From contig OZ076409.1 of the NCBI GenBank assembly GCA_964187785.1, positions 73,534,001-73,598,000 on the forward strand: a stretch of DNA of 64,000 nt. The letters run 5' to 3'. The DNA is from Amphiscolops sp. MND2022. Lineage: Eukaryota. Numbering within the stretch: position 1 is the stretch's first letter; each line of letters starts with the position of its first letter. The notes beneath the pieces are model-generated. The model did not search any database and had not been told where the DNA came from. It saw only the letters and a list, made by a program, of their open reading frames with translations. A program made the position numbers and the translations under genes. This document shows, piece after piece, positions 1 to 46,800 of the stretch.

Positions 1-690
1 TGAAGAGAAAAATGCCGCTTAGAACGACTCTTTATCGTATCTTGACGTTAACGTATGGGGCTTTGAATGAGAGCTTGATAAGAGGTCGAGAAGTCAAAGT
101 GTGTAAATGGAACGTATGTCTCGTCGAAAACTCATCGGAATACATTATATGAACCCCAATTGTCCTCAATTACAGTTGCCTAGTGCAACAACGTCTTTCA
201 GGGACATTTTACCCATTTTCTTAAGAGTCAAAATTATTTTTAAATTCAGTTAGCAAAAAACACTTGAGTACATTCTCATCTGTCCCCAGCGGATGAGATG
301 AGAATGTTCCTGCTAAAAGCCAGGTACTACGGCCCACTTTTGTTTTAATGCGACGCATTCCCTGCTTTAGCACATATATATTTTTATTTCTCCTGATTTT
401 TTGTACACACTGTAAATTGTTATTATAAAATTCTTGTCATTACGTTACATAAATTTACAACCATAAAACGTTATCGTCAACGCCAAATACATTTATACGC
501 CCACCATTCCCAAGGTATGTCGAGGCATACCTTTCGATTACGTATGTCAAAACGCAAACGCGATAAAAAGTGTTGAATTACAGAAACGCTGACAAACAAT
601 TTTAACTAATTGACACATGGTAGGTTTTTATATGGAACTTACACATCACTGACATTTCACAACCTTGCAGCTGACGAACACATACGAACA

Positions 691-787
691 TCAACGCCCA
701 CCGTCCGTGGGCATGCCGAGGCATGCCCTTCGACGACGTATGCCAATTTTTTTTCTATCTACACCCAATTGCGGTAGCAGCTAGGTG
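691..787 (+). repeat. Representative unit 3' end/junction: 51-nt conserved core (691-741) with hairpin GGGCATGCC-GA-GGCATGCCC (709-728), variable tail (742-780), CTAGGTG (781-787)
   Basis: Read directly; present at all 37 junctions. A GC-rich hairpin followed by CTRR is the established Helitron 3'-end signature, although the spacing here is longer than usual. Confidence 0.92.
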
Positions 788-1753
788 GCCGGAAATTTTT
801 TTTTTCAGCAAAATCTTTGCCATTGGGGGAGGGGCCCCGGATGGCCAGTAGTACGGGATAGCTTCCTACCAAATCCAGGCGGAAAAAACGTGATTTTGGA
901 AACTAGCCGTCAGAATTTGCTCAAATTTTGCATACGGCTTCCTATAACAATCCTAAGAACTAATCCCTACTGGCATTTTGCCCAAAAAACGCAAAAAGTT
1001 GGTCAAAATCTTAGTTTTTTGGTCAAAAAATGGCGTTTTTTCGAAAAAATTTTTTTTCAGAGACAATTACTCGTAACTGGTTCACCCAGCGCAAAAACGC
1101 CTAGCTGATTTATTGTTGGGCACTTCATGAGGAGTGCGTATACAAATTTTCGTCCAAATCGGATGAAAGTTGATTGAGAAATAACAGAAAATTTGAGGCA
1201 TTTTTTTGGAAATTTGTGAAATCCCAGTCTATCTCTGCCGTTTTTTGCCCAGATTTTTTTCCAGACACTCTCCTAAAGACCTCCCCTGGCCGGTTTACCT
1301 CCCAGCAAAACCATTTGGCCCTAAATACGGAGTTTCAGCGTTCTAGCATTCCCGGGCGAAAAGTTGTGGGACTTAGAAAAAATTTTTGGAAACGCAAAAT
1401 GTGTAAAGTCAACTTCAGGCCTCCCAAAGTCAAGAAACTTCCACACAACTAGTATTGCAAGTGAATGCATGTAGAAAGTACGTGAATAGACAAGGAAAAT
1501 GGGCTATAGAACGACTCTGTAGCTTAACTTGACGTTGACTTATGACATTTTGAGTGTGAGCGTCCTATAGGATTTTAATGTCAAAAATGAGATTTTGTAA
1601 GTCATGAGTCATCAAAAACTCATCGGAATACGTTCAATCATCCCCATAGCTGTTCAATCACCGATGTTTAGTAGAGCAACGCCATTATATGTCTTTGGAC
1701 CCATTTTAAAAATTTTCCTTACCGTCTTATTCGTCCGATATCACGAAACAGTT

Positions 1754-1799
1754 GAGTACATTCCATCTTCCCCCTTGTGGGGGAGATGAGAATGTACTC
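1754..1799 (+). repeat. Representative long subterminal hairpin, type 1 (GAGTACATTC-CATCTCCC...GGGAGATG-A-GAATGTACTC)
   Basis: Imperfect ~18-20-bp inverted repeat. It lies about 180-240 nt upstream of the core hairpin in ~1.28-kb units; in long units it lies a similar distance upstream of the degenerate duplicate core. Confidence 0.88.
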
Positions 1800-4625
1800 G
1801 CCAAAGACCTGATACAATGACCCATATTGGTTTTTATTTGACTTTTCTCACAATATTGCACACGGATAGCTGTGTTTGGTAAAAGTTTTCCTTTGCACCA
1901 TGTCTCCAGAAGCAAAACCACTTCTTTAGCTTACTACTTCTACTCAAACATCACTAACGTCAACGCCACATACTCGCATCAACGCCCACCGTCCGTGGGC
2001 ATGCCGAGGCATGCCCTTCGACGACGTATGCCAAATAGCGCCGCAGGGCGCCCCCAATTTCCGCTAGGTGCCGGGATTTCTATTCGATAAAGTATGTGGC
2101 GCGCCTTGGGTAGGGTCCCTTGCGCGCTCTTGGGTATGGTGTTCACCAGCTAGGAAACAGGGGTCGATTTTTCGGGATCTCCTAAACTAGCCACACGATT
2201 TGGCTGAAATTTGGCACACGTACCCCCCTCGGCACGGTGAAGATGATTTCCTACTGACGTTTTTCCCGCAAAATTTTTTTTGTTGTCCAAAATAACGGTT
2301 TTTGGGGGAAAATTTTGAACTTTTTTTAAATTTCATCTTATATCTCGCCACCGGTTTACGCTAGCGCTTCAAAACCCTGCTAAAGAAAGCTTGCAAACTG
2401 TCTCAGGAATGCGGTGTGAAATTTTCAGCTCAATCGGACTCAAACTCAGGGAGATATAGCGTTTTTCCGGAGCGGGGGGGTTTCATTTTTCTAACGGTCC
2501 AGCTTATCTTAGCCATTTTTTCGGAAATGTGCTCGCCTAAAGACCTCCCCTGGCCGGTTTTATTCCCAGCAAAACCATTTGACCCTAAATACGGAGTTTC
2601 AGCGTTCCAGCATTCCCGGGCGAAAAGTTGTGGGACTTAGAAAATTTCAAAAATTTTCAAAAATTTTTTTTTCCGTTTTCCGCCCTCCCCCCCTAGGGGA
2701 AAAGACCCCCCAACCAGTAATTTGAGTGAATTCATGTGGAAAGGCCATGTTTAGAGGAGAAAAATCCCGTTTAAATTGTGTTTTTATCTTTATTCAACGT
2801 TGACTTATGACGTTTTGAACGTGATGTTTGGAGGTGTGAAGCACGTGAAAAGTAAACGTTATGAGTATTTATCTGATCTGAAAGCCATTGAGATGCAACC
2901 TGTTTTGCTCAAAACGTAATTCATATCAGTTTGGTAGTCAATCAACACCCTTTGTTGTCATTTGACATCTTTTTTTGTTGATATAAGGAAAAATTTCGTG
3001 TATTTATTCATTTTTTTCTCATCAAATAACTTGAAACAGTTGAGTACATTCCATCCCCCCCTTCACGGGGGAGATGAGAATGTACTCGCAAAAAGCCCCG
3101 AACTACGGCCCTTACCTTCCTGAGCTACGCAGTATAAAGATTGCATATTTGTTCCGACATTTTGATAGAGTTATATCTTGGTAATCTGTCTGGGTATGCA
3201 GAAAAACCAGCACGTGCTTTTTTATACCAAGTTGCTCACAACGACATTTATTTTATATCAACGCCCCCATATTTATCAACGCCCCCCGTCCGTGGGCATG
3301 CCGAGGCATGCCCTTCGACGACGTATACTAAAATATGTTCGAGCGCGTTAGCCTAGGTGCCGGGATTACTATTCGATAAGGAATTTTGCGCGGTTGGGTA
3401 GGGCCCCGTGAGCGCGCCAGGGGATAGTGTTAGAACAACAAGGATTTGGGCATCAGTTGGGAGCGATTTTCTAAACTATCCGTACGATTTTGCTGAAATT
3501 TGGCACGAAGCTTCCTTGGAACATTCTAAGAACAAATCCCTACTGGCGTTTTGCTGGGAAAAATCAAAAAGTTGGTCAAAAATGCGATTTTCCGACAAAA
3601 TTTTGGGGTAAAATTTTTTTGAAACGTTATATCTCGCCACAGGGTCACGCTAGCGCCTCGCAACCTATGATCGTGTTTTGTTGGGCGTTGTCTGTAGAAC
3701 ACGTATGCCAAATTTGGTGGCGATCGGACTTAAACTCAGGGAGATATAGCGATTTTTTAGGTGCATTTTTTGACATTTTTTGCATTTGCCGATTTATCTC
3801 TGCCGTTTTTGCTCAAATTTTTTTTGAGACACTCTCCTAAAGACCTCCCCTGGCCGGTTTACCTCCCAGAAAAACCATTTGGCCCTAAATACGAAGTTTC
3901 AGCGTTCTAGCATTCCCGGGCAAAAAGTTGTGGGACTTAGAATAGTTTTTATGGTAACGCAAAATGTGTAAAGTCAACTTCAGGCCTCCCAAAGTCAAAG
4001 AACTTCCACACAACTAGGATTGCAAGTGGGTGCATGTGGAAAGTACTCGGATAGACGAGAAAAATGAGCTATAGAACGACTCTGTAGCTTAACCTGACGT
4101 TGACTTATGACAATTTTAGTGTGAGCTTGCTATTTGGTGTAAAAATTCAAATGATGAAAATCGAAGCTAAGTCTCATCCAAAACTCATCGGAATACGTTC
4201 AATGCATCCCAAAGCGGATTAATTCGAGATGTTTAGTGCAGCAACACCATTCAAGACCATTTGACCCATTTTTATAAGTTTTGACAACGTATTATTCATA
4301 CGAGAGCACGAAACAGTTGAGTACATTCCATCTCCCTTTCGGGGGAGATGAGAATGTACTCGCTAAAGTCCAGGTACTACAGCCCATATTTGCTTTTATG
4401 CGACGCTCTTATGCTAGTGCGCATACTTTTTAATCGTTTAACTGAATTTTCTTCTGTCTGCACTTTGACTTTGACTTGACATATAGTGAACGTTTTGTCT
4501 TACAACTTACAAATGAGTAACGTCAACGCCCCATCCTTGCATCAACGCCCACCGTCCGTGGGCATGCCGAGGCATGCCCTTCGACGACGTATGCCAAGAT
4601 ATATCCCAAGCGCGGTAGCAGCTAG

Positions 4626-28600: not shown

Positions 28601-31324
28601 GAGTGTGAGCTTGCTTTGTGATAAAAAATGCAAAACATGAAAATGGAAGCAAAGTCTCGTCGAAAACCCATCGGAATACGTTCAATACATCCCAAAGCAG
28701 CTTATTTCCAAGTGTCTGGTCCAGCAACACCATTCAAGAACATTTGACCCATTTTTATAAGTTTTGACACCGTATTATTCATCCGAGAGCACGAAACAGT
28801 TGAGTACATTCCATCTCCCTTTCGGGGGAGATGAGAATGTACTCGCTAAAGTCCAGGTACTACAGCCCATAATTGTTTTTATGCAACGCTCTTTATGCTA
28901 GTGTGCACACGTATTAATCTTTGAACTGAATTTTCTCTCGTCGGCACTTTGACTTTGACTTGACATATACTGAATATTTTGTCCTTTTAATATACACATG
29001 ACTAACGTCAACGCCCCATCCTTGCATCAACGCCCACCGTCCGTGGGCATGCCGAGGCATGCCCTTCGACGACGTGCACCAAGATATGTTCGAGCGCGTT
29101 AGCCTAGGTGCCGGGATTTCTATTCGATAAAGTAAGTTGCGCGGTTGGGTAGGGCCCCGTGAGCGCGCCCGTGTCTGTGTTTTTTGAACCTGAATTTGCG
29201 GGTGCCAAAATAGACGATCTCCTAAACTATCCATACGATTTTGCTCAAATTTGGCATACGGGTTCCTGAGACAGATATAAGAACTAATTCCTACTGGCGT
29301 TTTGCCCGGAAAATTTTTTTTGTTGCGCAAACTTGAAATTTTTGACAAAAAAATGCGTTTTTTTTTGAAAAATTTTTTGAGAGGCCATATCTTTTTTCAG
29401 GGTGCCCGGAGCGGGACGCGTTAAACTGATTATAAACTCTACGGTTCACGGGCTGTACGGGCAACCTATTTTTGTTGGAATCCGACTTGTAGATTTTGAG
29501 ATATATTATCAAATTTGGGTGTTTTTTTTCCAATTTTTCGAAAAACCTGGTTTATCTCTGCCGTTTTTTGCCCAGATTTTTTTCTAGACCCTCTCCTAAA
29601 GGCCTCCCCTGGCCGGATTACGTCCCAGCAAAACCATTTGGCCCTAAATACGAAGTTTCAGCGTTCTAGCATTCTCGGGCGAAAAGTTGTGGGACTTAAA
29701 AATTTTTTTTTAAAACGCAAAATGTGTAAAGTCAACTTCAGGCCTCCCAAAGTCAAGGAACTTCCACACAACTAGGATTGCAAGTGGATGCATGTGGAAA
29801 GTGCTTGAATAGACGAGGAAAATGAGCTATTATAAAACTCTGTAGCTTAACCTGACGTTGACTTATGACAATTTTAGTGTGAGCTTGCTATGTGAGAAAA
29901 AATTTCAAAAATTGAAAATCGAAGCTAAGTCTCATCCAAAACTCATCGGAATACGTTCAATCCATTCCAAAGCAGTTTACTTCCAGCTATAGACTGCAGC
30001 AACACTATTCAAGACCATTGTACTCCTTTATATTAGTTTTGACATTGTATTATTCATCCGAGAGCACAAAGCAGTTGAGTACATTCCATCTCCCTTTCGG
30101 GGGAGATGAGAATGTACTCGCTAAAGAACAGGTACTACAGCCAATTTTTGTATTTATGCGAAGCCATTCTATGCTATTGCACATAACAACTATGCTATTG
30201 ACTTAATTTTGCCTACACTTTGCTATGACATATGCTAAACGTTTGGTCCTTACAACAACATACACATGACTAACGTCAACACCACATACTGTTACCAACG
30301 CCCACCGTCCGTGGGCATGCCGAGGCATGCCCTTCGACGACGTATGCCAAATACCTTCCAGCGACGCTCGCGCTCCCCGGCTAGGTGCCGGTGTTTTCTT
30401 CACTTTTGAGGAAGTTGCGCGTGTGGGTAGGGCCCCTGGCGCGCTCCGTTGTCCCTGTGTTTACATCTTAGAAAATTTGAAAAAAAATTGAGATCTCGAG
30501 AACTCTCCTAACGATTTGGCTGAAATTTTGCATGCGGCTTCCTATAACAATTGTAAGAACTAATCCCTAGTGGCGTTTTGCCCGGAAAATTTTTTTTGTT
30601 GACTTATTCACAATTTTAGGTCCGAAAAATGACGTTTTTTCGAAAAAATTTTTTTAAGAGCCCATATCTCGCTCCCAGTTGCCCGGAGCGATTCGTACGT
30701 GGACGTGATATTGCTGGGCACTTCATCAGGAGTCCGTATACAAATTTTCGTCTAAATCGGATAAAAATTGACTAAGTAATAGCCGCAAAACGGACGCATT
30801 TTTCCGACATTTTTCGAAAACCTAGTCTATCTCTGCCGTTTTTTGCCCAGATTTTTTTTGAGACACTCTCCTAAAGACCTCCCCTGGCCGGTTTACCTCC
30901 CAGCAAAACCATTTGGCCCTAAATACGAAGTTTCAGCGTTCTAGCATTCCCGGGCGAAAAGTTGTGGGACTTAGAAAAAATTTTTGGAAACGCAAAATGT
31001 GTAAAGTCAACTTCAGGCCTCCCAAAGTCAAGAAACTTCCACACAACTAGGATTGCAAGTGAATGCATGTGGAAAGTACTCGGATAGACGAGAAAAATGA
31101 GCTATAGAACGTCTCTGGTTCTTAATCTGACGTTGACTTATGGTGTTTTGAATGTGGGCTTGTGAAGGTGTCTAAAAGTAAAAAAATGGAAATCGAGTTA
31201 TTCTACAGCAAAAACTCCTTTAAATAGGCTAATTAGGTATAAGTAACGTGAAACACTGTCGTACGGAACGATTATGATTATAGGCGATACGGTTCGTTCA
31301 AAAAAATTGCCAACAATTTTGCTC

Positions 31325-31404
31325 TTTTTTCTTAGGTTTTTTTGTCTAGGATTTTTTTCTTTGGTTTTTTTGCTTAGGTTATAGGTGTAGGTTATAGGTT
31401 AGGC
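31325..31404 (+). repeat. Short degenerate T-run/TAGG repeat tract
   Basis: TTTTTTCTTAGG TTTTTTTGTCTAGG ... TTAGGTTATAGGTGTAGGTTATAGGTTAGG read directly. Confidence 0.6.
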
Positions 31405-33010
31405 TTTTTGTAAGGCCCTGTTGGCTTTCCCTGTTCACAGCATAGTTTGTTTTTAGTGGCAGAAGAAGACGACGACGACCAAGCATACGAGTTTTTTCTT
31501 TTTTTTTTGGTTTTCCTTGGGGTTAATGGCTATCCCGAAACCAGTGGCTCCTGCTCGAGGGCTTCTCGGGTGCTGGTTTCGTGTATGGGGTTTCCCCCCC
31601 CCCCCAGTAGGTAACCTCTGCCCAAATTTTCAAACGTCCCTCGTAATTCGCATTTTGCCGGTGTCTTTTTTTTACGGGCGTTTCGTCGAAAAAGATAGAA
31701 TTTTTCTCGGAACCGGCAAAATCGGAAAATCAATCACCAAAAATAAACGACGTCGAGAAATCAATCAGACTTATCGGGCGTCCAGTTGCTACAAAGAAGA
31801 AGTACAGATTAACTATGCTTCAGTTTCAGGTGCCTGTCAATCGAGCTCAAGATGTCTTTTTTTGTAACTTATTAAATAGTCCATAAAGTTATTGAAAATA
31901 GGGAAATTTGTAAAGGTTAGTTTTTTTGAATATTGATAGAAATTTTTGATCATATGTACTAGTGCTTTTAAAAGCAACAGGATATATAAATATAAAGTAA
32001 ACTAAATTGCAGTTTAACTGTTCTAATTTCCTTCAGTTTTAGTTTACAGATGAAGACTCGCCATAGCCATACGTAACGTTATCTGAATCGAATTCGCGGA
32101 GACTTTCACATCTGCACATCGTTCGTACGGTCGTTATTGAGCATAAAATACGCTCATTGAAAAAATGTGTGATCGGCGTCGTTCAATTTCTACATGTAAC
32201 TTACGTTCCCTATTATGAAGTCTTAATTTGTTACATATCTCTGCGGGATCTCTGCCATTATATAGTTTTGACCTATCTAAAAATGTTTAATGGTTTAACC
32301 CATCAAGCTATTGAACTATTTGGATGTTGGATGAACCTGTTTTTGATTCTGATCAAAGAGTCAATTTCTCGTCATATTATACGATTATGACACCAGATTT
32401 CTTCTCCAATTTAAACAAAAAATTGAATGTTTGGTAGACTTTTGGAACCCGCAGAGAAAACAGTTCCAATGTAAAGGCTATGTTTATGAATCCTTTGTAC
32501 CAGATGCACTTGAGAATGAATTCTACCAATAAAAGACTTGAAACCTCTTGTACTGTATGTTTGATGTATGTTTATTTTATACTGAGAGTCAAGAAGGTCT
32601 TTAATTATCGCGAGATATCGTTTCATTTTTTCTGTGAAATTCCTATCATTTATCGTTTTTCAGCAGTCAAACAAACCTTGATATTCTTTGATAATACGCT
32701 GCCTACAAAGTTTTAGCGATCGGCTCATTGTTTCTTTTGTCGGAGGTGCGTAAAAATGTAATGATACATCGTGTAAGCGATAACTTCATATTCCAACAAT
32801 GTTTCAACAAATCTCGTGATATACCTAGTAGTTCTCGATCATCACACTTTCAAAGCTATGATGTTTGAAACTGGTCGTTTTCGCTATCACCAGGATTTTT
32901 GAATTGCAGTTATTCTGAATTTTTTTAATACCTTCAAAATACTTCTTTTCTCGAAGCGTTTCGTGACAACTTATGTTTCAAACGTGTATCTGATTGTGCG
33001 AAACTTCACC

Positions 33011-33028
33011 TTTTATTTATTTTTTCAG
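33011..33028 (+). promoter_or_regulatory. Probable 3' splice acceptor (cis or trans) just before the first ATG of the large ORF
   Basis: T-rich tract TTTTATTTATTTTTTCAG|G ends 4 nt before ATG 33033; inferred from the spliceosomal consensus only. Confidence 0.5.
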
Positions 33029-33032
33029 GGTT

Positions 33033-36000
33033 ATGTCCACGAGAGGGCGCGGTCGTCCAACCCGCAACCGTGGAAGCCGAAAAACGTGTTCACGATGTAG
33101 CTCTTTCGTGCGCTCTGATTTAACTTTATGTTCACGATGCTCCTCAACAGATGTCCAGTTGCCGAACGGGAATGAAGATGAACCACATTCGTCCAATGTG
33201 GAAGAAATATCTGCAACGCAACAGTTTGTCACTTGTAGCCTTTGCAGCTCGAATGAACAAACTAATGGAAATCTTTGTGCTGATTGCAGTCCTTTTGTTT
33301 TACCAGAGTGTACTTCCGTTGAATGTCAGAAATGTCGACGAATCCCTTCCACACCACTGAAAACAGCAACAATCGGAGAAATTAAAGTTACACAATTTGG
33401 ATGTCGTCTATCTAGAACAAGCCATGACTTAATCAACCTTTGTGACGAATGTTTCCATTTCTCCACTGGAGGATCATCTTGGAAAAATGCCTGGCCTGCT
33501 GTAATTTTGGACTTTTTAATTGGTAAGTTTAGTGGACTAGTCTCGAATAAACCTTTCCACAGTGTCTTACCTCAATCAATGTTGCAACAATACCAACATC
33601 TGCGTCAAAATATTGGTGATCCTGATAGAGTTTTCAACGATTTAACACCGAAACTGTCAACCTTCAAGAACCTAAAACAATCTCTGAAAGTTGAAGATGT
33701 CAAAGCGGCCCATAACACATTTTGTTTCCCGGAAGTAAGATGTCCTTTTGGGTGTTCTGAGTTTGTTGGTCAAACAGGCACTGTGCCTTTCCATTACTTT
33801 TTAAACAAGTTGGACCCCAATTTCAAATTCAAAGTAACAAATTGGAAACTCCGTCTCAGATGCGTTCGCCCAGATTGGCTAACAAGCTACATTCACAATG
33901 ACATGTTCATTATCAAACCGCATGTCGTTATTGACAATGTGAAAGGATTATGTATAGCAACATGCAGTTTCCATAACGGTGGATCCAACAAGCTATTCGT
34001 ACATCCGCCATGTAACCCGACCGGTAGACTGCCATCCAGAAATTCTGATCGTTTGGGACCAGCGACAATTACTTACAACTCATACAAACCTGCTAAGCCA
34101 AATTACTCAAGTCATACGTATTCCATGGGCGTAGCAAAAGGAGGCTTCACAGGGATTAGTTCAACAACAATAGGATGTAAACGGAAATGGGACATTGCTT
34201 TTGGAATGAAAGAAGTGTCCAGAGAGTCTTTGTGCTGCAATAATCGATCAGACATCAAACCTCTTCTACAGAAACTAGTTAAACAAGGTGAATTGTCACA
34301 AAATCTTTGCGACAGTATATCATCAGCGGACGCCATGCCTGAATGTCATGAAATTTCAAACTGCCTCAGAAATACAACATCTGTTCCTTTGGAATCTTCT
34401 CTTGCGGTGAAAAAACTACAAGAAAGTGGTATCGAAGTGAAGTATTTCCCTATTTTTGCACACCCCTTCAACAATTACGGATGTGATCCTCCCGAATTGG
34501 CTATTGTTAATTGTGAAAGACTGTACTTGTGGAACTTTTTTGTCATGTTTGCTTTGAGTTCTTCATTCCATTCTTCGTTACTGGAATCTACTGTTCAACA
34601 AAGTAAAGAATTGGCGAAAACATTTCACCAAATGTTTTGTGAACCGGGAAAGTCGAGTTCCAAGAAACAAAAAGAAGATTTGACACGGTCTCTAGAATCC
34701 TTATCCTCGAATGCTTCCGGTGACTTCCATAGAGATATCACACAACTTTTAACGAGTATAACTTTTTGTGACATTGTTAGTGTCAATGCTCGGGACGACG
34801 TGAATTCACTCTTGACGAACAACAATTACAAGAACATTGTGATCTTCACGTCCAACTCCAGAACAGGGACACACACTTCATATTTGCCAGATCGAGTATC
34901 AAGTCCTAATGGAAACGTCACTTATGAACTGAGATCAATTGCGATAAAAGACGGCAATACAATCAAAACTGTAGTGAGACATGGCAAACAATACAATTGT
35001 TGGTGGACTTATTCGAGTAACAGTTATCAACCTTTACAAATCAACGTTGACGACGTCACATTAATGGGTCAAATACATTCCAATTGGATTACTTGTCACT
35101 TTGAACATGTTGATTCGCTCAAGTTGCGTGAAGAGAAATTCCGCTATCTGGAGTACTTGGGAGGACAAGGTAAATTCATATGTAACCAACATCAAATTCC
35201 TTTAACTGTCAGCAGCAAAAAATCAAACTGCACCTGTTCTATTCTTGCCAACTGTCTCAGAAAAGCCGCATGGCAGTGTCCGTCCTCAGACTGTACGTCT
35301 GGAGTTTGTCGTTCACATTTCAAAAGTGACACTCAGTCGGAAAGAGTTTTCGTTCATCCAACTTGCAACACCATAATGGCGGACAGTGTCCCACGTGTAG
35401 AAACAACAGAAGATCCCGAGCAATTGGTCGAACTATCAGATACCGAGTCAGAATACGATGAGTTTTCTTTTGTGCATTTTGCTACAGACTCTGGTGGAAT
35501 TGACAACTCAGAATCTTTGAACGCAACCGATTCTGGAGATATACCATATGTTCATGAGTCACTTCAAAGTAATGTTCCCACACACATTCTGTTGAACACC
35601 GATTGCCATGTTCTTCAAAGGCATAGGTACCGAAACGAACGAAACAAAAGTTGTTCCCGAATTTTGCAAAATATAGTGGCATCTACCCCAGGTGATTCAA
35701 TTCCTCTTATCTACCCTGAGGCAACAGTTTTCCCCACGCAGTATTTCCACGAACAGGAGGACGGTACAATCACTGGCGCAGTACCATCATCACTTTACAA
35801 TGACAAACAAACCAAACGATTCCACTTCGCAGAAATAGAGGACCACAAAAGAACTTCTTTGCTAAATCCAAATTTACTGCAGTCAACAGATGTGAGAAGC
35901 ATACAAACGTCTTTCGACACTGTGTTTAACAAGCGCCTCACTTTTGCTGATACCAGATTGGTTCTTAACCGTGGCTTCCAGGAAGTGAACTCCAAAATGA

Positions 36001-39000
36001 GCAAGACTATATCTCCAGACAACACAAGATTGCAGTTCGATAAAGCGGACTCTAGAGTGCGTGTCAACGAATTGGCGTCCCTCCTGTCAGAAGAGCCTGC
36101 AACTTTTTTCCTGACTCTCACGTGCAATCAAAAAGAGCACTTTGGAGTTGGCCCAATTTTTGACGCATTGGAGGAAAAGTATGACAGAAACAATACTGAA
36201 GAATGGTATGGTGCCGTACAAGCTGAAATTGTCCTTTTAACAAGAGCATGGTATCGATCAGCCGAAGCTCTAATGGAATACATTGAAAAATCGCCAGATA
36301 AACCCCTCGGGACTGTAACAAAGTTGTGGTACAGATATGAATTTCAGTCAACTAAAGGTAACTTGCCACACATTCACGCCGTTATTTGGACAAGAGAGAG
36401 CATTGACGAATTAAAATACAAAGTTTCTTGTTCTGGTTCATCTGCTTTATTTGAATTGAAGAAACTCGCAAACGAGACAGAACTCATACAAACAAATGAC
36501 GTAATGGAGATTTGGAATGACCTGATGACAGTTCAAACGCATTCATGTGAAAAAGCTGGTTTTCGATGTCATAAAGTCACCAAAGAAGATGGATCCACCA
36601 TATGCAGAGTACCACGATACCCTTTCAGTTCTGAATACAAATGGAGAAAAGTTCCTTCTTGTCACTCTGAAGAAGCTCTTGAAAAACTGTTTTTTCTAGA
36701 CTTGGCCGTGCCCTCACAAAGTCGTGACAACACTTACGATATAACAAACTTGCTCCAAGGCGGGAAGCATGAGTATCCTGCATCCACCAATGAACACTTG
36801 TCGCCTTTCAACACTCTCTTGTTTCTGCTGACAAAATCTTCCCAGAATCTGCAGTTGTGTGATGAGTATTTATCTGCTCGATACATCGCCAAATATGCTG
36901 CAGGAATAGAAGAAAGAGCAGATGCCCATGTAGATCCCATTACTTTCAAGGACATCAAAGTACAGACGAACGGCATTAAAAATATCAAAATATCGGGATC
37001 TAAACTTAGAAGTAACATAACAGAAAGAAAAACACTGGTTCAAATAATACCTCTTGTAGAATCAATCTGGTGGCTATTAGAGTTTAATTACGTGTACAGC
37101 TCCGTTACATTTGTGCACATGAATACCCACGAAAAATCGGAACGAGCATCAATTGTGAAGAACACTTCCCGGAATCAAACAACTGTATCTTTGCCACTTC
37201 ATGTTACAAAACTTTCTACTTTTCCACCTCATCGGAATTATACCCAGTCACAATTGCTCTTACTGGAAGATCATTTGGCCAGCGACTATACGACTTGCAA
37301 AATGTCCATTTTCAGTGGCAGACCTCCTGCACTACTTTTTGTTGACAACCCTAAACTATATTTCACATGGTTTCAACGTAAACAGCTCAAAAATCCTGAA
37401 ACCAAAATTAAAGAAAATGCCAACTCCTCAATGTGGATTGACATATTTGGATTTGCAGTGTATTTGCGCAGATACTATTTGGATTCATTCAGGGACTATA
37501 TACAGAAATGCAGATCAGAAGGACATGCAAACTTGACACGCTTCGAACAGGATTCAACTTTGACTTTTTTGCAGACTGACACTCATGGACTAAAAACAAT
37601 AGAAGATAGACCTGTTCAGGTGGTAACATCAAATATTTTACCAATCAGCCCCCAGAAGTTTCTCATTCATTACGTACTCTCCTACGGTCGATTTGAAACG
37701 GAAATTGATCTCTTCAACAATGCCAGCATGATTGATGTTTTCCAACACTGCAAACTGCTTCTAAGAAAGAGCTCCTACACTCAACAAGACGCGTTACCAC
37801 TGATTAGAAACTACGTTTTGGATGAACTGAAATATCTTCCCGGTGCCAGTCGCTCCTTTGACCGCCATCTGTTAGCCAGTTTTGAGTTATTCACAAATCT
37901 TGTTACAAACAATCAAATTTATACAGAAGCACTGCCTTCCGTTTTACATACCGCAATTCACGAGAATGCATCACACGCCTACAATGTTTTCAACGCTCAG
38001 AAGAAGGAGAGATGTGTCCAGGCATGTCTTTTAAATCCACCATTGGCACCGTTACAACCATACCAGACACAGCTTCTGAATGCCACTCGCAGAAATCCTT
38101 TTCTTTTCGATTACCCGTTTCCTCGAGCGGAGGGTCAATCAGAAGATTCCTACATGTTTCAACAGCAAGTTTTTGATGTTTGCTCTGAAAGATTGGACAC
38201 TTATGTTAATGGAAGTCAAGGATTCGTCAAGCATCAAATGTTTTTGGGACGTCCCGGAAGCGGAAAAACGCTGGTGTGCACGATGCTTTTCATTAAAGCC
38301 GTTTCAAAAGGCTTAAATTGCTCAATAACGTGTTTGAGTGGTGAACGTGCCCAGCAACTTGGAGGGGAACACATTCACAAAATGTTCAAGTTCAAAGTCA
38401 ACCACTCTTTAGTTCCCGAAGTGATGGCGAGTCAAAGTGTGAAGTGTTTATTAAGGGATGTCACAAGATTCACCGATTTAGAAAGATTAGAAGTACTGTT
38501 CATAGACGAAGTAGGCCAATTAAACGCGGAGTTGCTGTGTGCCATGGAACTTGTATTGCAGAATGTCCGTGACAACAAGCTACCTATGGGCGGTGTACTA
38601 ACACTTTTCACCGGAGATCCAAAGCAATTGAAACCACCGGATGGATCCCTGGTTTGGTTGTCACCAAAAATGCTAACCAACTTCGAGTTTCATTATTTCT
38701 TACACTACGTCAGAGCAGTTCCTGGCCTCTTAAGAGAGATTTTGAGCAAATTGGATGAAACCAATATTGGTGAGACTGAGGCTGCCGCTTTAGCAAGAAT
38801 AATTATATCCAATTGCGTTATCAAAGCTAATTGGGATGACGAAAATAACACCTTCGCAATGAGAGTATTCAGCACCCGAGCAGCAGAAAAAACAGCAGTC
38901 GCACAACACAGTGAAAGAATTTTGAATGACGTTAACTGTCCATCCATCATATTTGCAGCTCAGGATGAACAAAGTTCAACTGGATCATCCATATGGTTAC

Positions 39001-40031
39001 CAGCTTCCAGTCAAAATACGACATTCATAGACAATCATACAATCACTCCCCAAAGGCTTTTGCTTTACAGAGGAGCACTTTTGAGATTCACAGCCAATGT
39101 TCCAACCATAAATGCCAGACAGGGTCAGTTGTGTCTCCTTCTGCAATTTCCTGATTCTACAGCAACAACTTTGAATGTTTTGATTGCACCACCTGGATGC
39201 CGTGCTGCTACTTCTACGGACGAAACCTGTTTGCTAGCTTCTGGTTGGCAGAAAGTTAAGGTATCAAAAGTATTCACACCCGTCATAACAAACAAAAGTA
39301 CCTTTCTGCGCAGATACTCTTTTCCCTTGAAAAATTACGTCGCCTCCACGATTCACAAGTGTTTGGGAGATACCTTCCCTAAAATTGTATCGAAGGTTTC
39401 GCTTAATGAATCCAGTTACAAAATTTGGGAAAAGGAGCAACTGTTGGTTCTCCTCAGTCGGGTAAGCAAGCTAGAGGACATTACCTTCATTGGAACTGAA
39501 TCTGATCTTCTAGCAACCTTGACTGCCGTCATACAAAAGGAATCTTGTTGGAGCCACTTCATCAACAGTCTACTTCTAACACTCGCTTCACCTACTACGA
39601 CTCACACTTCGACTTTTAATGTGCTGACTACAAACTTTCAACCTTGGAACATCGTTCTGCCTGATGATAACACTGGTTTCGTCTACATTCTAGTTAGCAC
39701 GAAAATTACCAACGTATTTTACATTGGGGAAACAGTTTGTCTACGGCGAAGACTACGCGAACATAACTCTGGCCAAGGAGCGGAATCAACACGACCCATA
39801 GAAAGAAGGCCATGGGCTGTTCTAGCATTTGTGACTGGGTTTTGCACAACAAACATGTTAACTAACATGCGACAGCGAAAAGAACTTGAGAGAACTCTGA
39901 ATTACCAAGCATCGCTGATAGGACCGAACATTGCAGTGCCAAGCATTTTCCGTGTGATACAAGATTGCGTAGTATCGTACTCATCCGCCAATGAACTTAA
40001 TCTGAAAGTTATCCAATGTGGTAATATTTAA
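33033..40031 (+). CDS. Helitron-type Rep/helicase transposase (HUH Rep + Pif1-like SF1B helicase) with Cys-rich N-terminus and C-terminal GIY-YIG nuclease, ~2332 aa from the first ATG
   Basis: Uninterrupted 7-kb ORF (the track starts at TTG 32994; first ATG is 33033). Rep motifs FFLTLTCN, YRYEFQSTKGNLPHIHAVIW and YIAKY; helicase motifs GRPGSGKT, FIDEVGQL, GDPKQLKP, ASTIHKCLG and LLSRV; C-terminal GFVYIL...FYIGET...RRRLREHN. Confidence 0.93.
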   Translation: MSTRGRGRPTRNRGSRKTCSRCSSFVRSDLTLCSRCSSTDVQLPNGNEDEPHSSNVEEISATQQFVTCSLCSSNEQTNGNLCADCSPFVLPECTSVECQKCRRIPSTPLKTATIGEIKVTQFGCRLSRTSHDLINLCDECFHFSTGGSSWKNAWPAVILDFLIGKFSGLVSNKPFHSVLPQSMLQQYQHLRQNIGDPDRVFNDLTPKLSTFKNLKQSLKVEDVKAAHNTFCFPEVRCPFGCSEFVGQTGTVPFHYFLNKLDPNFKFKVTNWKLRLRCVRPDWLTSYIHNDMFIIKPHVVIDNVKGLCIATCSFHNGGSNKLFVHPPCNPTGRLPSRNSDRLGPATITYNSYKPAKPNYSSHTYSMGVAKGGFTGISSTTIGCKRKWDIAFGMKEVSRESLCCNNRSDIKPLLQKLVKQGELSQNLCDSISSADAMPECHEISNCLRNTTSVPLESSLAVKKLQESGIEVKYFPIFAHPFNNYGCDPPELAIVNCERLYLWNFFVMFALSSSFHSSLLESTVQQSKELAKTFHQMFCEPGKSSSKKQKEDLTRSLESLSSNASGDFHRDITQLLTSITFCDIVSVNARDDVNSLLTNNNYKNIVIFTSNSRTGTHTSYLPDRVSSPNGNVTYELRSIAIKDGNTIKTVVRHGKQYNCWWTYSSNSYQPLQINVDDVTLMGQIHSNWITCHFEHVDSLKLREEKFRYLEYLGGQGKFICNQHQIPLTVSSKKSNCTCSILANCLRKAAWQCPSSDCTSGVCRSHFKSDTQSERVFVHPTCNTIMADSVPRVETTEDPEQLVELSDTESEYDEFSFVHFATDSGGIDNSESLNATDSGDIPYVHESLQSNVPTHILLNTDCHVLQRHRYRNERNKSCSRILQNIVASTPGDSIPLIYPEATVFPTQYFHEQEDGTITGAVPSSLYNDKQTKRFHFAEIEDHKRTSLLNPNLLQSTDVRSIQTSFDTVFNKRLTFADTRLVLNRGFQEVNSKMSKTISPDNTRLQFDKADSRVRVNELASLLSEEPATFFLTLTCNQKEHFGVGPIFDALEEKYDRNNTEEWYGAVQAEIVLLTRAWYRSAEALMEYIEKSPDKPLGTVTKLWYRYEFQSTKGNLPHIHAVIWTRESIDELKYKVSCSGSSALFELKKLANETELIQTNDVMEIWNDLMTVQTHSCEKAGFRCHKVTKEDGSTICRVPRYPFSSEYKWRKVPSCHSEEALEKLFFLDLAVPSQSRDNTYDITNLLQGGKHEYPASTNEHLSPFNTLLFLLTKSSQNLQLCDEYLSARYIAKYAAGIEERADAHVDPITFKDIKVQTNGIKNIKISGSKLRSNITERKTLVQIIPLVESIWWLLEFNYVYSSVTFVHMNTHEKSERASIVKNTSRNQTTVSLPLHVTKLSTFPPHRNYTQSQLLLLEDHLASDYTTCKMSIFSGRPPALLFVDNPKLYFTWFQRKQLKNPETKIKENANSSMWIDIFGFAVYLRRYYLDSFRDYIQKCRSEGHANLTRFEQDSTLTFLQTDTHGLKTIEDRPVQVVTSNILPISPQKFLIHYVLSYGRFETEIDLFNNASMIDVFQHCKLLLRKSSYTQQDALPLIRNYVLDELKYLPGASRSFDRHLLASFELFTNLVTNNQIYTEALPSVLHTAIHENASHAYNVFNAQKKERCVQACLLNPPLAPLQPYQTQLLNATRRNPFLFDYPFPRAEGQSEDSYMFQQQVFDVCSERLDTYVNGSQGFVKHQMFLGRPGSGKTLVCTMLFIKAVSKGLNCSITCLSGERAQQLGGEHIHKMFKFKVNHSLVPEVMASQSVKCLLRDVTRFTDLERLEVLFIDEVGQLNAELLCAMELVLQNVRDNKLPMGGVLTLFTGDPKQLKPPDGSLVWLSPKMLTNFEFHYFLHYVRAVPGLLREILSKLDETNIGETEAAALARIIISNCVIKANWDDENNTFAMRVFSTRAAEKTAVAQHSERILNDVNCPSIIFAAQDEQSSTGSSIWLPASSQNTTFIDNHTITPQRLLLYRGALLRFTANVPTINARQGQLCLLLQFPDSTATTLNVLIAPPGCRAATSTDETCLLASGWQKVKVSKVFTPVITNKSTFLRRYSFPLKNYVASTIHKCLGDTFPKIVSKVSLNESSYKIWEKEQLLVLLSRVSKLEDITFIGTESDLLATLTAVIQKESCWSHFINSLLLTLASPTTTHTSTFNVLTTNFQPWNIVLPDDNTGFVYILVSTKITNVFYIGETVCLRRRLREHNSGQGAESTRPIERRPWAVLAFVTGFCTTNMLTNMRQRKELERTLNYQASLIGPNIAVPSIFRVIQDCVVSYSSANELNLKVIQCGNI
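36099..36905 (+). other. HUH (Y2) rolling-circle initiator catalytic core within the large ORF
   Basis: Motif I TFFLTLTCN (~36102-36128), motif II H-I-H (36369-36377) and motif III Y-I-A-K-Y (36882-36896), in the order known for Helitron Rep. Confidence 0.9.
38241..39480 (+). other. Pif1-like helicase domain within the large ORF
   Basis: Walker A GRPGSGKT (38247-38270), GGEHIHKMF, Walker B FIDEVG, PMGG..GDPKQLKP, FPLKNYVASTIHKCLGDT and QLLVLLSRV. Confidence 0.9.
39675..40028 (+). other. GIY-YIG endonuclease domain, SLX1-like, fused in frame at the C-terminus
   Basis: GFVYILVS-x6-FYIGET-x3-RRRLREHNSGQGAEST-x5-RPWAVLAFVTGF...KELE follows the SLX1/GIY-YIG pattern VY.L.S...YIG.T....RRL.QHN...GA..T...RPW.....V.GF...E, recognised by eye. 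Confidence 0.82.
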
Positions 40032-40042
40032 ATATATTTCTG

Positions 40043-40084
40043 CGCTTGCCCGGATCGCGCAGTGATCCAAGGGCAAGCGTCTAG
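40043..40084 (+). other. GC-rich hairpin followed by CTAG, 11 nt after the stop codon
   Basis: CGCTTGCCC-GGATC-gcgcagt-GATCC-aa-GGGCAAGCG, then T-CTAG. A possible poly(A) signal ATTAAA lies at 40169-40174. Confidence 0.7.
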
Positions 40085-42429
40085 ATACTCATTACAATTT
40101 GCTCATGTTGCCCTCTTTTGTTATCTTCATGTAAAACTGTTGCTTTGAATTGTTGCTATTGTAAAACCATTAAACTTTAACTTACAGCTCCATATCCTCA
40201 ACTTCGTCGACAGATTTTTTCTTTGAATTACTACTTGAAAGCTCCTTCAATTACTACCTTTTCATATATTGGTTATTTCACAATCTCTTTTCGTCATTCG
40301 AAGTTCCAGTGTCTTTATTTAACGAATTTTGCTCAACAAACTGCTGATGGGCCTTTTACTTCGAAATTGTTCGGCAATTCGCTATTTTATCACACATGTT
40401 ATCATCGCACTCCTCTTCTCAACACGCTGACATTGATGGGGCTGGTGTCTGACCCGCAAGGGTGGTAACAGTGCCAATACCTCACTTTGTTTTGCCCAGA
40501 GAAGCTTCAATTTTTTGCCGATCCCTCGTAAAGCTTTTGTTTCCCCCATAATGTCTGTTTCCAGTCCACGCTTTACATTGTTTGTGCTAACTCTGCATTG
40601 ACTTGCATCATCTGGAATGAAGAAATCTGAATATAGTACATGGTTCAAACTTAACTCGAATAAATCTCAAAAAAAATTGAGGTTTTTTCTCATAAATTCT
40701 CAGGATTTTTCTTGATAAAATCTCTTTTACAAAATAAAAGAATCTAAAATGTTATAATTAACCCTAAAAAATATCTAATTTGCTTGAAGATTTGAGTTTT
40801 ATTATTTGAGGATTTAGGAGTTTTTCTCGTATTTTATTCAAAAGATAGTCATCAGTAATTAAAGTTATGATCGATTTCTCTAAACATGTTTTAACTTTTT
40901 TATGAAGAAAGTGACAGTGAATATATGTAGAGTTAGTTTCATCTCTTTGGTCAACACGGGATTATTATCAGTCATTTTGAATCATAATTTATTTTGTTAT
41001 CAGTAACAATTTTGAATTAGACTTCTCCATTACGATTCAGCCTAAAATAGGCGTTATATGAAAAGTTCAGTAGGTAAGTTTTTTGTTTAATTATTAAAGT
41101 TGGATGACAGTTTCGTTCTTTATCATCAAAAAACAAATTGCTGCAACAGTGTTTGCAATAAAAGTTATTGGGGACAGGTCAAAACATTTTTACTTTCTTT
41201 GTTTGAACCATAGAACGATCAGCTAAAGTGTTTCCTGTTGGAAAAGGAAAACCGTCAATCGGGACACAGTTAAACGATGTTTCCTGTTCGTCCGACTTCA
41301 CTTACCCTCCGCCAAACGCTCAAGTATTCGAATGTTTGCATGGAAACTTTTTGTTCATAATGGATACTGCTTTCAAGTATCGATTATTGATGACAAATTG
41401 ACTTTTTGATGAAGGGACTTTTTGATGAAAATGAATAAAAGAAAAAACATTGAGCGATCATGCTTCAACTCACTTGTCATTTCTGTCATCCATATCACAC
41501 AATTCAAGCACTTCCTTCATTGGTCGCACCCATGATACTCCAATCAAAAAACCAGTTTTTTAAATTGATAATATGTTCAAACAGTGTCGGACGCAAAGAG
41601 AGTCGAAAATAAGTTTTTTGAACTGGCCATTTTTCATAATTCTTTGCAAACGATTCTATTACAGCTTTATTCTCCCTAGCTTCATTCGTCAACATTTATC
41701 TCTAGAAGTGATGAACTCACGCGCATAACTAGTATCAGACCTGCCTTCAATACCGATATGTCCGTCTTGCAGCTACTGTTGCTTCCTTTTGAACTTCATC
41801 TTTGAATAAAGAACTGTTGTACATAACTCTTCATTGCATCCTGAAAATGACTCCAGCTGAAACAAGTTAAACTTTTATTTTCTTTGTTGCTCGCATTGTA
41901 AATAATATAAACAATTCGGTCATATGGTTTGAACAGATTAAAAAAAAAGAGCATTGCACCTATTGCAATGAACGCGGACATAAATACAAATTGAAGATTG
42001 AATTTTTCAAACCTCTGTTTTTAGCCATTCAAGTTGAAACTAGGAAATTAGATAAAGTAGGCTAAAGGCTAGTGTACAAAGTGTTAGTTCGTCTTTTTAG
42101 AGCCGTGAATCAGTTATAAATGCGCTCAAACTCTTTCTGTAAAACATAATGGAAACATAAAAATCTAAACAAGTGCTTAGCAACATAACTGTTCTTACTT
42201 TAATCATTTATGGAATTATTTTTTTTCCATTGCGTAGGAGAATCAATCAGTTACGTTATGTTCGAAATTGACGTCCCCATCTATTGCAACTAGAACGTCA
42301 GCTGCTATATGTGCATCAAGCCGACGTGCCAAACCATTTATCAACGCCCACCGTCCGTGGGCATGCCGAGGCATGCCCTTCGACGACGTATGCCAAATAC
42401 CTTAAAACCGACGCGCACTCTTTCGCTAG

Positions 42430-43821: not shown

Positions 43822-46800
43822 GTGGTCGGGGCGGTCCCCAGAACGCACATGGAGGCGCGGGGAGGGTCCTGCGCCGACGTAGAATAATTTCATAAAATAC
43901 TATTATCCTACATGGGTGTTTTTGAAGCGATTTTGGAACCTACCCGTCAAATTTGGATAATTTTTTGCATGCGGCCAAAACTCAAAATTCTAAGAACTTT
44001 TTCCTACTGTCATTTTCCCCGCAAATTGTTTTTTGTTGACTTATGGCCGAAAAACCGGAAATAACGTTCTTTTTAGACGTTATATCCGAAGTGTCGTCAT
44101 AACTTTTTTCCAGGGCATGCTAGCGTTCTTGTTCACTTTTACACTTAGTTGCAGCATCTCAAAATACAACTGGTGGAAAATTTTGGTTGCATTCGGATCA
44201 CCCCCCACCGAGATAGAAGGGTTCCCCCCTCCAGTTTTACCCCCCAAATTTGCGAAAAAGCCAATTTCGAGCATGAAGCCGAGGATTTAGCGTACCCGCA
44301 CCCTTCTGATGTTTTGTCGTACAAATTGGGGTCAATCGGATGACATGTGTGATTTTCACCCCCAACCCCCCCTGGGACCGGAAATGACGTTTTTTGTGTT
44401 TTTTGGCAGAAATTAGCCTTTTTCATTATAAGGCAGTCGTTTTAGGGACTCCTAGTAGGATATCGAAATTGAAATACAACCTGATCACAACCCAGTGACA
44501 ACATGTTGGCCATTTGGAGGTACCATCAAGACCGGAAGTGGGGTCAACCCCCCTTTTTGTGACCGCTTTTTGACCTTGTGCACCAAAATGCCAACAACTT
44601 GAGGCCTAATGACGCATTCAAATCTGTACAAAGATTGAATGTTAGACAACCAAAGTCCCGGAAGATCTTTAGCATATACCGGAAGTTACCCCCCATGACC
44701 GGAAGGTACCCAATGTGACCGGAAATGGTCCAAAAAGTAATGTAAAGTTGAATTTTTAACTATTTCCAGACCACTTCATTGAACATTTTCAATCCCAAAA
44801 CTAGCGTACTGGCTTGTTTTGCTGAAGTTATGGAAATTGATGAGCTCTATCACCCCCGATAGCCTTCGAAGTTGACCTTGCGTCAACTTTGGAGGCTATC
44901 GATTCTGAAAATGAACAACAGAGTTCATTGTTGCTCTCGTTTTTTTTCCGTTGTTTTTCCTCAAACATTCTTGAGACATATACATGGCAGTTAGTTAAAA
45001 TCAATTTTTTAGCCCATGTTATAGCGGGAGTAGCAAAGCGTTACACGGGCTAGTGTGGTTTTGAACTTACATTATTTTAAAATAAAAAAAGACCGTCTTA
45101 GTCAACGCCACACTTTCATAGCAACGCCCACCGTCTGTGGGCATGCCGAGGCATGCCCTTCGACGACGTATGACGAATCCACTTCCACGACGCCCGCAGT
45201 CCTCAGCTAGGTGGCCGCGTCTTTTAGATGGACTTTTAGCCCTGAGGCGCGGGTAGGGTCCTGCGCCGAGCTGGTGAAAATATACTACGTCCAAATCGCC
45301 CGTTCCGGAAACGATCTCGAAAACTGACCGTTAGAAATTCCTGAAAATTTGCATGTGGCCCCCAATTGGCGAGCAATGAAAAAGTGTAGGAGGTCATTTT
45401 TCCCAAATTCCACTGTGAGACGAGATATATGAAAAAAACGGACCCCAAAATGACGGAAATTTCACTTTTTGACCATTAATGGGACATTATCTCCCCAGGC
45501 AAGGCTCGGAGCAAAATTTGTCAGAACCCAAACCTGCAGCAGACTGTTAGAGCAGTACACACAGTAATTTTGAAAGAAATCCGATAATCACATGTTGAGA
45601 AATTGACGTTTTTCCGGCGAAATTTCTAGCAAATGCAGTCTATCTCTGCCGTTTTTTGCCCAAAATTTTTCCGAGACACTCGCCTAAAGGCCTCCCCTGG
45701 CCGGTTTACCTCCCAAAAAAACCATTTGGCCCTAAATACGAGGTTTCAGCGTTCTAGCTTTTCCCAGTAAAAAGTTATGGGACTTAGAAGTTTTTCAAAA
45801 CTTTTCAAAATTTTTCTAAAAAAGTTCAGGCCGCCCAAAGTGAAGAAACTTCCACACAACTAGTATTGCAAGTGAATGCATGTGGAAAGCCCTGCACTTG
45901 ACGAGAAAAATGCCGTTTAGAACGTCTTTTTATCTCAACTTGATGTTGACTTATGATCTTTTGAGTAGCGTATAACACGTGATCACAGTAGTGAAAACCC
46001 TAATTTTCAAAAATTTTCGAACAATAACGCATGAAAAGAACCTAGAAAAGGTTCCGATGGGTCAGTTGGGATGTCTGAAGCTTGTGTACATTCCCGTAGT
46101 GTATAGCGGATGTATTTGGGACTTATTAGAAATTGTGATATGTTTTATACAAGTCTTTGTTTCTCTTAGAATCTTATGCAGTTGAGTACATTCCATCTCC
46201 CTCTCAGGGGAGATGTGAATGTACGTTTGTCAAATGCCTTGTATATTTCACATCTTTGATGGATTCAAATACCTAAACAAGTGTGATTTGCGTTTGCCGA
46301 ACCACTGCGACAAAATACCCTAAATCTATAGCGAGATTGTATGGTTTTTGTCTTTAGTGTTTCGTCTTGTGTAGCCGACTTCCACATCCAAATATCAACG
46401 CCCGCCGTCCGTAGGCATGCCGAGGCATGCCTTTCGACGACGTATGCCAAATACCCAATGCCACGCTGTCATTATCGCTAGGTGGTTGGGGCGGTCCCCA
46501 GAACGCACAAGGAGGCGCGGGGAGGGTCCTGCGCCGACGTAGAATAATTTCATATAATACTAGTATCCTACATGGGTGTTTTAGAAGCGATTTTGGAATC
46601 TAACCGTAGGATTTGGATAAATTTTTGCATGCGGCCATAACTCGAAATTCTAAGAACTTTTTCCTACTGTCATTTTCCCCGCAAATTGTTTTTTGTTGAC
46701 TTATGGCCGAAAAACCGGAAATAACGTCCTTTTTAGACGTTATATCCGAAGTGTCGTCATAACTTTTTTCCAGGGCATGCTAGCGTTCTCGTTCAGTTTT

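Follow-up and report, generated by a model that had tools for sequence, protein, structure and literature searches.

The 51-nt block that recurs along a 64-kb stretch of Amphiscolops DNA is probably a Helitron-like right-end (termination) hairpin signal that is read by a RepHel-GIY-YIG protein, with new units being inserted at the junctions between existing ones; we put the probability of this combined reading at roughly two in three. Its two parts carry different weights. The analysis as a whole makes it highly likely that the core marks the right end of each unit, and the self-targeting part, in which new units enter existing junctions, stands at about even odds. Here, the window denotes the whole stretch of 64,000 nucleotides that was analysed, and the features discussed below are collected in Table 1.

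Table 1. Features of the window, with positions counted from its first nucleotide
Feature	Position	Strand	Remarks
51-nt conserved core	691..741	+	First of 37 copies; subterminal signal of the unit ending at 784
Main hairpin	709..728	+	8-bp stem 709-716/721-728, loop CGAG; 19/20 match to p53 response-element consensus
Main hairpin with A-T outer pair	46413..46432	+	
Main hairpin with A-T outer pair	51562..51581	+	
Main hairpin with A-T outer pair and one broken inner pair	56603..56622	+	
Bulged stem extension	702..735	+	702-705 and 707 with 731-735; second register possible
Proposed alternative stem GCCCAC-cgtcc-GTGGGC	696..712	+	Not maintained
Variable spacer	742..780	+	26-39 nt across copies; inherited with upstream unit
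Invariant junction CTAGGTG	781..787	+	Presumed unit end CTAG, unit start GTG
5' hairpin of next unit	819..845	+	Fixed inner GG[GT]AGGGNCC; outer 5-6-bp stem, 9 different arm sequences
Example of a complete ORF-less unit	785..2067	+	GTG...CTAG, 1283 nt
Long internal hairpin, ~19-20 bp	1754..1799	+	300-360 nt before end; example from first complete unit
Diverged upstream core copy	495..545	+	From 196-nt duplicated end; no CTAGGTG after; main stem kept via double changes
Other diverged upstream core copies	51348, 56389, 58765, 61160, 63351	+	
3'-end duplications	495-690, 51348-51543, 56389-56584, 58765-58960, 61160-61360, 63351-63546		196-201 nt
Sole coding unit	30385..42429	+	12,045 nt; core at 42341, junctions same as other units
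Uninterrupted ORF	32994..40031	+	2345 codons, first ATG 33033
GIY-YIG coding part	39675-39860	+	

The conserved core and its array of units

The window contains 37 plus-strand copies of the core with 0-4 mismatches (14 identical, 11 with one mismatch, 7 with two, 4 with three and 1 with four), and 37 of its 51 positions are invariant among them. The 17-mer at 696-712 has 63 matches with up to 3 mismatches on the two strands, against an expected 0.06. In an alignment of the short units, which comprises 30 of the 36 complete units and excludes the five long units and the coding unit, mean pairwise identity reaches 0.968 in the core window, compared with 0.758 in the next best 51-column window and a mean of 0.548; invariant columns number 41 of 51 in the core versus 82 of 1246 outside it. 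Since the units tile the entire window, this high identity is not caused by dropping units that lack a core. The near-invariant 51-nt core that the original prediction had described in 37 units is thus borne out, and the per-position comparison that it had suggested places the conservation of the core above that of all other blocks. Its accompanying statement that the bodies differ greatly does not extend to all units: the 35 complete ORF-less units fall into 16 subfamilies at 85% identity, and some pairs are 97-99% identical. The core is in all likelihood a real, functional feature, and we propose that it stays fixed while the bodies drift because each ORF-less unit depends in trans on related transposases.

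Six additional copies of the core are diverged, with 13-20 mismatches, each some 196 nt upstream of a regular core, and 3'-end duplications are present in all five long units and in the partial first unit; CTAGGTG does not follow the upstream core in any of these duplications. The motif TCAACGCC, described as often present twice some 19 nt apart just upstream, has its upstream occurrence exactly at 19 of the 37 cores and with at most one mismatch at 27 of them, at 18-20 nt; it is absent at the very copy cited, that at 691.

The word CTAGGTG occurs 37 times on the plus strand of the 64 kb, each time 26-39 nt past a core, and never on the minus strand. The spacers between core and junction adopt no consistent fold when set against shuffles (mean z -0.4). 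Comparison of the 666 junction pairs, which are not independent of one another, revealed 11 in which the upstream DNA is near-identical and the downstream DNA different; spacer identity in these is 0.91, and the exact match stops a median of 3 nt after CTAG. In 14 other pairs the downstream DNA is near-identical and the upstream DNA different, and spacer identity is 0.57, close to the background of 0.54. The spacer follows the upstream unit, and the units are therefore joined within CTAGGTG rather than in the core. The mobile unit would accordingly run from GTG through core and spacer to CTAG, with the core subterminal, the joint in the 7-nt word and a nick position that is presumed. Breakpoints fall at this word, whereas homologous exchange would be expected to favour the 51-nt stretch of identity. 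The core as crossover point was considered and rejected, the breakpoints mapping 26-39 nt beyond it. As regards the lack of target-site duplications that marks Helitron-like elements, none of the 37 junctions has extra bases, but the division of CTAGGTG could lie at any point in the word, or the word may be a target that is regenerated; neither a host flank nor a solitary copy was found in the 64-kb window.

A 5' hairpin of the next unit lies 36-57 nt after most junctions, being found at 36 of 38 (the 37 of the window and that of L001, a metagenomic relative described below). Its own arms pair over at least 5 bp in 24 of 24 distinct cases, compared with 43% when arms are crossed between hairpins. 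With a covariation stronger than that in the core, it represents a candidate left-end signal.

The 37 units are chained head to tail in a single orientation with their subfamilies mixed, the complete ORF-less ones measuring 1.26-2.4 kb, and units with 97-99% identity are found 5-15 kb from each other, flanked by different neighbours. None of the 27 adjacent short-unit pairs is identical (highest identity 0.978), and the best match of a unit is in most cases not its neighbour. Identity between neighbours exceeds the average (0.64 versus 0.53), and same-subfamily neighbours account for 8 of the 35 adjacent pairs versus 1.8 after shuffling (p 1e-4); furthermore, there are mosaic units, and certain dimers are seen more than once. 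The short units yielded no cargo ORFs, and the ORFs listed outside the coding unit are all shorter than 170 aa.

A separate observation concerns a long internal hairpin (for instance at 266-310 and 43471-43514), which is present in all 36 ORF-less units, one of them partial, and at about 564-600 of L001. It lies about 510 nt before the end in units with a duplicated end, and occurs in two unrelated sequence types, its shape and place being kept and its sequence swapped; the final 620 nt of the coding unit contain none. The z values of this hairpin are inflated by the choice of the best window in each unit. Our guesses as to its role are a substrate of the SLX1-like domain or a site of second-strand priming.

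Pairing within the core

The predicted main hairpin of the core has an 8-bp stem and a 4-nt loop, CGAG, in place of the 9-bp stem with a GA loop drawn originally. The main stem folds with z -2.9 on the plus strand and z -2.5 on the minus strand, and the wider 131-nt region folds no better than shuffles (z -1.4). The stem is Watson-Crick paired in 36 of 37 cores; its outer pair is G-C in 34 cores, A-T in 3 and mismatched in none. Both copies previously singled out for a paired change of the outer pair, at 46413-46432 and 51562-51581, carry it as claimed, and a third, at 56603-56622, had been overlooked.

Once the six diverged upstream copies are added, double changes appear at 4 of the 8 main-stem pairs. 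An alignment was made of the variant copies and one reference, 18 rows out of 44 known copies; in it 94% (93.8%) of cells pair, and 0 of 500 shuffles reach the covariation score, a control that ignores relatedness. These double changes stem from about three lineages. A single origin for two of the A-T cores was not rejected in an AU test (p 0.14), and the three A-T cores may represent one or two events. Of the six upstream copies, four retain 7-8 of the 8 stem pairs and two are clearly broken, with an A-C mismatch in three of the six. Moreover, the G-to-A/C-to-T change of the outer pair also preserves a double-stranded p53-type consensus. The compensatory change is consequently weaker evidence than it might seem, because few events are possible and because the same change keeps that consensus. 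The covariation check thus upholds the main stem in part, with double changes at half of its pairs set against few lineages and two broken upstream copies, and the support for its pairing appears real but modest. The G-T and A-C changes in cores and upstream copies gave a mixed picture that picks no strand as the folded one. The CGTC/GACG extension was rightly predicted to be able to lengthen the main stem, being pairable in 37 of 37 cores; it is invariant there, so that covariation cannot test it in the cores.

The core had also been proposed to harbour a second stem, GCCCAC/GTGGGC, competing with the main hairpin. This stem is present at 696-712 as described, but its competing role is unsupported: in 12 of 37 cores it is not fully Watson-Crick paired (11 with a true mismatch, one with a G-T pair only), none of these changes is compensated, and the A-T change that preserves the main stem breaks it. 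On these grounds the alternative stem was rejected as a switch. That the core works as a two-state switch between both stems, or as a structured RNA, is extremely unlikely, since the substitution pattern largely refutes it. Formation of the alternative stem is possible in 25 of 37 cores, and the 18-row alignment gives it 6 double-change cells, a number reached by 0 of 500 shuffles; these cells, however, trace to a single lineage of upstream copies whose three outer pairs are broken, 78.7% of cells pair compared with 93.8% in the main stem, and the stem is missing from the minimum-energy fold. Searches of Rfam and for tRNAs returned neither an RNA family nor a tRNA match for the core.

The coding unit, the proposed mechanism and its rivals

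The first 780 nt of the sole coding unit are 97% identical to the unit at 26557-27832, and on its 3' side it shares only the core with other units. Its ORF exhibits an HUH motif (PHIH), the motif YxxKY, a Pif1 helicase and a C-terminal SLX1-like GIY-YIG domain; Helitron_like_N (PF14214), PIF1 (PF05970) and GIY-YIG score above the Pfam cut-offs. Residues H1126, H1128, Y1297 and Y1301 are invariant across 35 relatives. A model of the Rep region (pLDDT 61) yielded one significant structural match, Helraiser 7LCC (E 1.7e-8). For the C-terminal domain the matches are SLX1 nucleases, and a profile of the 35 relatives matches Helraiser by sequence in the helicase only. The protein family comprises 192 clusters at 50% identity (E under 1e-30), with GIY-YIG in 29 of 55 relatives according to precomputed domains. 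The motif-II pattern occurs in 45 of 141 further relatives, 44 with six residues between EFQ and PHxH and one with seven, and the QxRG form in 0 of the 141.

Three further observations were made in the coding unit. A pyrimidine tract and CAG just 5' of the first ATG (33010-33035) resemble a splice acceptor, which suggests that the unit may have a spliced 5' leader. Its strongest hairpin (40043-40084) directly follows the stop codon and is itself followed by CTAG and then A; it may represent an end that is older or alternative, or else correspond to the long hairpin seen in short units. Short repeats of the TTAGGT/TATAGG type (31370-31410), which may resemble telomeric repeats, directly follow the shared 780-nt part.

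A metagenome scan with the core pattern identified a single 1.2-kb contig from another assembly, L001, with a body about 70% identical; its core has two changes, including the A-T pair, and beyond the core come 35 nt of spacer and a head-to-tail junction that reads CGAG|GTG. No relatives with flanking DNA were found in viral contigs. A Rep fragment 36-42% identical and without ends (L002, 1-2512) occupies a 2.5-kb contig in a bacterial MAG record, and is probably eukaryotic DNA binned into it. Nine of the 59 contigs of at least 50 kb among the homologues carry two or three different transposase clusters, a count in which equal size is taken as the same contig and which has no null model; it hints that diverged transposases are clustered in arrays. 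Four diverged transposases of three clusters apparently lie on one contig of 1,297,008 nt. A profile search for HLE1/HLE2 references retrieved one reference-like protein only, P0240.

By analogy with Helraiser, the Rep protein would nick the top strand at the CTAG|GTG junction and the helicase would then peel the strand in the 5' to 3' direction. Folding of the core on the displaced strand would license the following CTAG|GTG to be nicked in turn, and the ends would be joined into a circle whose junction equals the array junction. A junction preceded by a core would be the preferred nicking site of the enzyme, and units of any subfamily would be inserted into existing junctions. As the circle junction would be identical to the array junction, and that junction would be the substrate of the enzyme, insertion there would build a mixed array in one orientation, to which local duplication and recombination would add. 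Random-order insertion is not the whole story, because same-subfamily neighbours are enriched (8 versus 1.8) and some dimers recur.

In Helraiser, the 3' hairpin is a terminator whose loop sequence matters, and precise head-to-tail circles form (PMC4778049). Its transposase cleaves head-to-tail junctions on the plus strand and requires double-stranded donors (PMC5876387), a requirement from which it follows that the core may be read first as a duplex. Furthermore, tandem transposons are known to arise when the same target receives two insertions (bioRxiv 10.1101/158386). The earlier suggestion that the Rep recognises the core much as a Helitron 3' hairpin is recognised is supported in that the core is subterminal to CTAG, is shared by the one unit with a RepHel gene and keeps its stem pairing through double changes; its element of two stems falls away.

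Beyond the right-end reading, and somewhat short of even odds, the units may represent a lineage of rolling-circle transposons of their own, in which the junction is a regenerating integration site and the core its address, possibly doubling as a p53-family site. Such a lineage would be characterised by a RepHel protein with a fused SLX1-like GIY-YIG domain, the Rep motif EFQ-x6-PHxH and integron-like cassette arrays of all subfamilies. If junction targeting is true, this would be a Helitron that inserts site-specifically into itself, turning a transposon into a mixed satellite array without target duplication; it would also be a candidate for a sequence-specific single-strand integrase with a load of 1-12 kb. 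If the p53-family site is true, transposition would be linked to a host stress or germline factor.

The same right-end signal could sit in an ordinary Helitron satellite that grew by rolling-circle concatemers, unequal exchange and gene conversion, with no junction targeting. Head-to-tail Helitron arrays have been reported from bats, Drosophila, rice and maize (PMC5148889, PMC5876387), and the greater likeness of neighbours, the enrichment of same-subfamily neighbours, the mosaics and the recurring dimers all accord with this origin. We nevertheless consider it unlikely: identical pairs are missing among the 27 adjacent short pairs and best matches are mostly non-adjacent, 16 subfamilies and a 12-kb coding unit are interleaved with exact junctions, and the breakpoints avoid the 51-nt identity. 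Still less likely, to our mind, is that the conserved 20-mer is read as a duplex, whether by the transposase or a p53/p63-family factor of the host, the hairpin being a by-product of a palindromic site. The p53 response element consists of two RRRCWWGYYY half-sites (PMC4323202), and in L001 as well as in 36 of the 37 copies of the core the 20-mer, in which both half-sites have CATG at their centre, departs from RRRCWWGYYY-RRRCWWGYYY at one position and so agrees at 19 of 20; these are the only such matches in the window, and a random 8+4+8 hairpin reaches one 2-3 times in 10,000. This consensus survives the G-to-A/C-to-T change and is lost in the six non-terminal copies (3-5 mismatches). Against it, the motif was spotted post hoc among many possible motifs, its single mismatch is invariant and lies in an asymmetric centre, invariance spans 37 of 51 positions and so reaches far past the 20-mer, and in four of the six upstream copies the consensus is lost although 7-8 of 8 stem pairs are preserved. 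Reading of the duplex can coexist with the right-end signal, in which case the p53-type site may be a second function.

In IS91, the end downstream of the transposase gene starts transposition. A comparable arrangement would make the core end an origin, at which iteron-like TCAACGCC, hairpin and nick site start transposition on the bottom strand. The core end is indeed the most conserved end and the sole 3'-side part common with the coding unit, the direct repeat at 18-20 nt resembles iterons, six units have a duplicated core end, and the initiating end of Helraiser is the indispensable one (PMC4778049). Even so, an origin at the core appears quite improbable, given that a hairpin followed by CTAG-3' on the coding strand is a Helitron right end, that in other HLEs conservation is greater at the right end (PMC11417382), that the upstream repeat is weak or absent in 10 of 37 cores, and that the G-T and A-C changes pick no strand.

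Comparison with known systems

Two features of the Helitron-like superfamily are present here: an HUH-Y2 Rep and a Pif1 helicase in one ORF, and ORF-less partners that share their ends with the autonomous element (780 nt at 97% identity, the core and the junction). The family belongs to this superfamily, and the core probably works like a Helitron right end. By the definitions of HLE1 and HLE2 in PMC11417382, PMC4067079 and PMC5148889, its termini fit neither group.

Likeness to HLE1 and Helraiser extends, in addition to the shared Rep and helicase, to a hairpin and then CTAG 3' of the ORF, to ORF-less partners with the same ends and to head-to-tail junctions. The CTRR 3' end of HLE1 corresponds to CTAG at 37 of 37 junctions and to CGAG in L001, taking the nick position as presumed. 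The differences lie in the 5' end and in spacing. CTAG is followed by GTG at 37 of 37 junctions, hence by G and not T, and no split of CTAGGTG gives CTRR followed by TC, so the 5' TC and the A/T insertion of HLE1 are lacking. The canonical 16-20-nt palindrome lies about 11 nt from the end (PMC4067079), whereas the 20-nt palindrome described here lies 43-56 nt from it across a variable spacer, inside a 51-nt fixed block. A canonical hairpin in the last 30 nt was sought and rejected, as the spacers fold no better than shuffles. In addition, GIY-YIG is fused to the protein, and the arrays are mixed rather than clonal.

With HLE2 (Helitron2/Helentron), FoHeli1/2 and DINE-1/HINE, the units share hairpins near both ends and an extra C-terminal nuclease, and in FoHeli1/2 the 3' hairpin likewise lies tens of bases from the end (38-51 bp; PMC5148889). 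Unlike HLE2, they have no subterminal inverted repeats: 0 of 36 units show a 12-mer inverted match with at most one mismatch between the first 30 and the last 110 nt, and one deeper inverted match, in 5 of 36 units, is no better within than between units. The T-T insertion and T-rich ends of HLE2 are also lacking, the junction being CTAGGTG. GIY-YIG stands in place of an AP endonuclease; neither DUF6570 nor an AP endonuclease was found in the window protein (E 0.001) or, by precomputed domains, in any of 55 relatives. A Xenopus Helentron-type protein aligns over short motifs only, with EFQ-x4-PHIH as opposed to the x6 spacing here, and has the QxRG form.

Integron attC cassettes and IS200/IS605 elements also carry a folded hairpin near one end, and integron arrays are mixed and of one orientation, as is the array described here, in which each unit has a bulged hairpin near its end. 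In integrons the crossover lies within the folded attC site; the attC likeness that had been suggested fails on this point, with breakpoints 26-39 nt beyond the core and the joint at a varying distance beyond the hairpin. The protein encoded here is an HUH-Y2 RepHel, not a tyrosine recombinase or Y1 transposase, and no cargo ORFs were found.

The Helitrons of Paramecium, a third HLE clade, are similar by description: they have a divergent RepHel, right-end stem-loops with compensatory changes and a strict single orientation, explained by target-specific insertion (PMC13085455). They differ in ending in CCAA and inserting into telomeric repeats, whereas the present units abut with no host repeat between them, and GIY is unmentioned in the main text (PMC13085455). 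Precedents thus exist both for target-specific Helitrons, at Paramecium telomeres (PMC13085455), and for tandem Helitron arrays and self-insertions (PMC5148889, PMC5876387). The literature searched, to which Repbase and most subscription journals did not belong, holds no description of the RepHel-GIY-YIG family as a group; the one related case found is a Sphagnum HLE2 family with a captured GIY-YIG domain (PMC11417382). The available parts of PMC6431247, PMC13565253, PMC8788227 and PMC6213432 contain nothing on a RepHel-GIY-YIG clade, and the unclassified HLE clusters of HELIANO (19 genomes) may include it.

In summary, a conserved hairpin at a Helitron end is ordinary and its context less so: 37 natural variants show which bases, pairs and distances are tolerated, beside an uninterrupted transposase gene. 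The terminal hairpin is of a known kind, and what is new by comparison with these systems is the combination of atypical ends, a fused nuclease and an exact mixed array.
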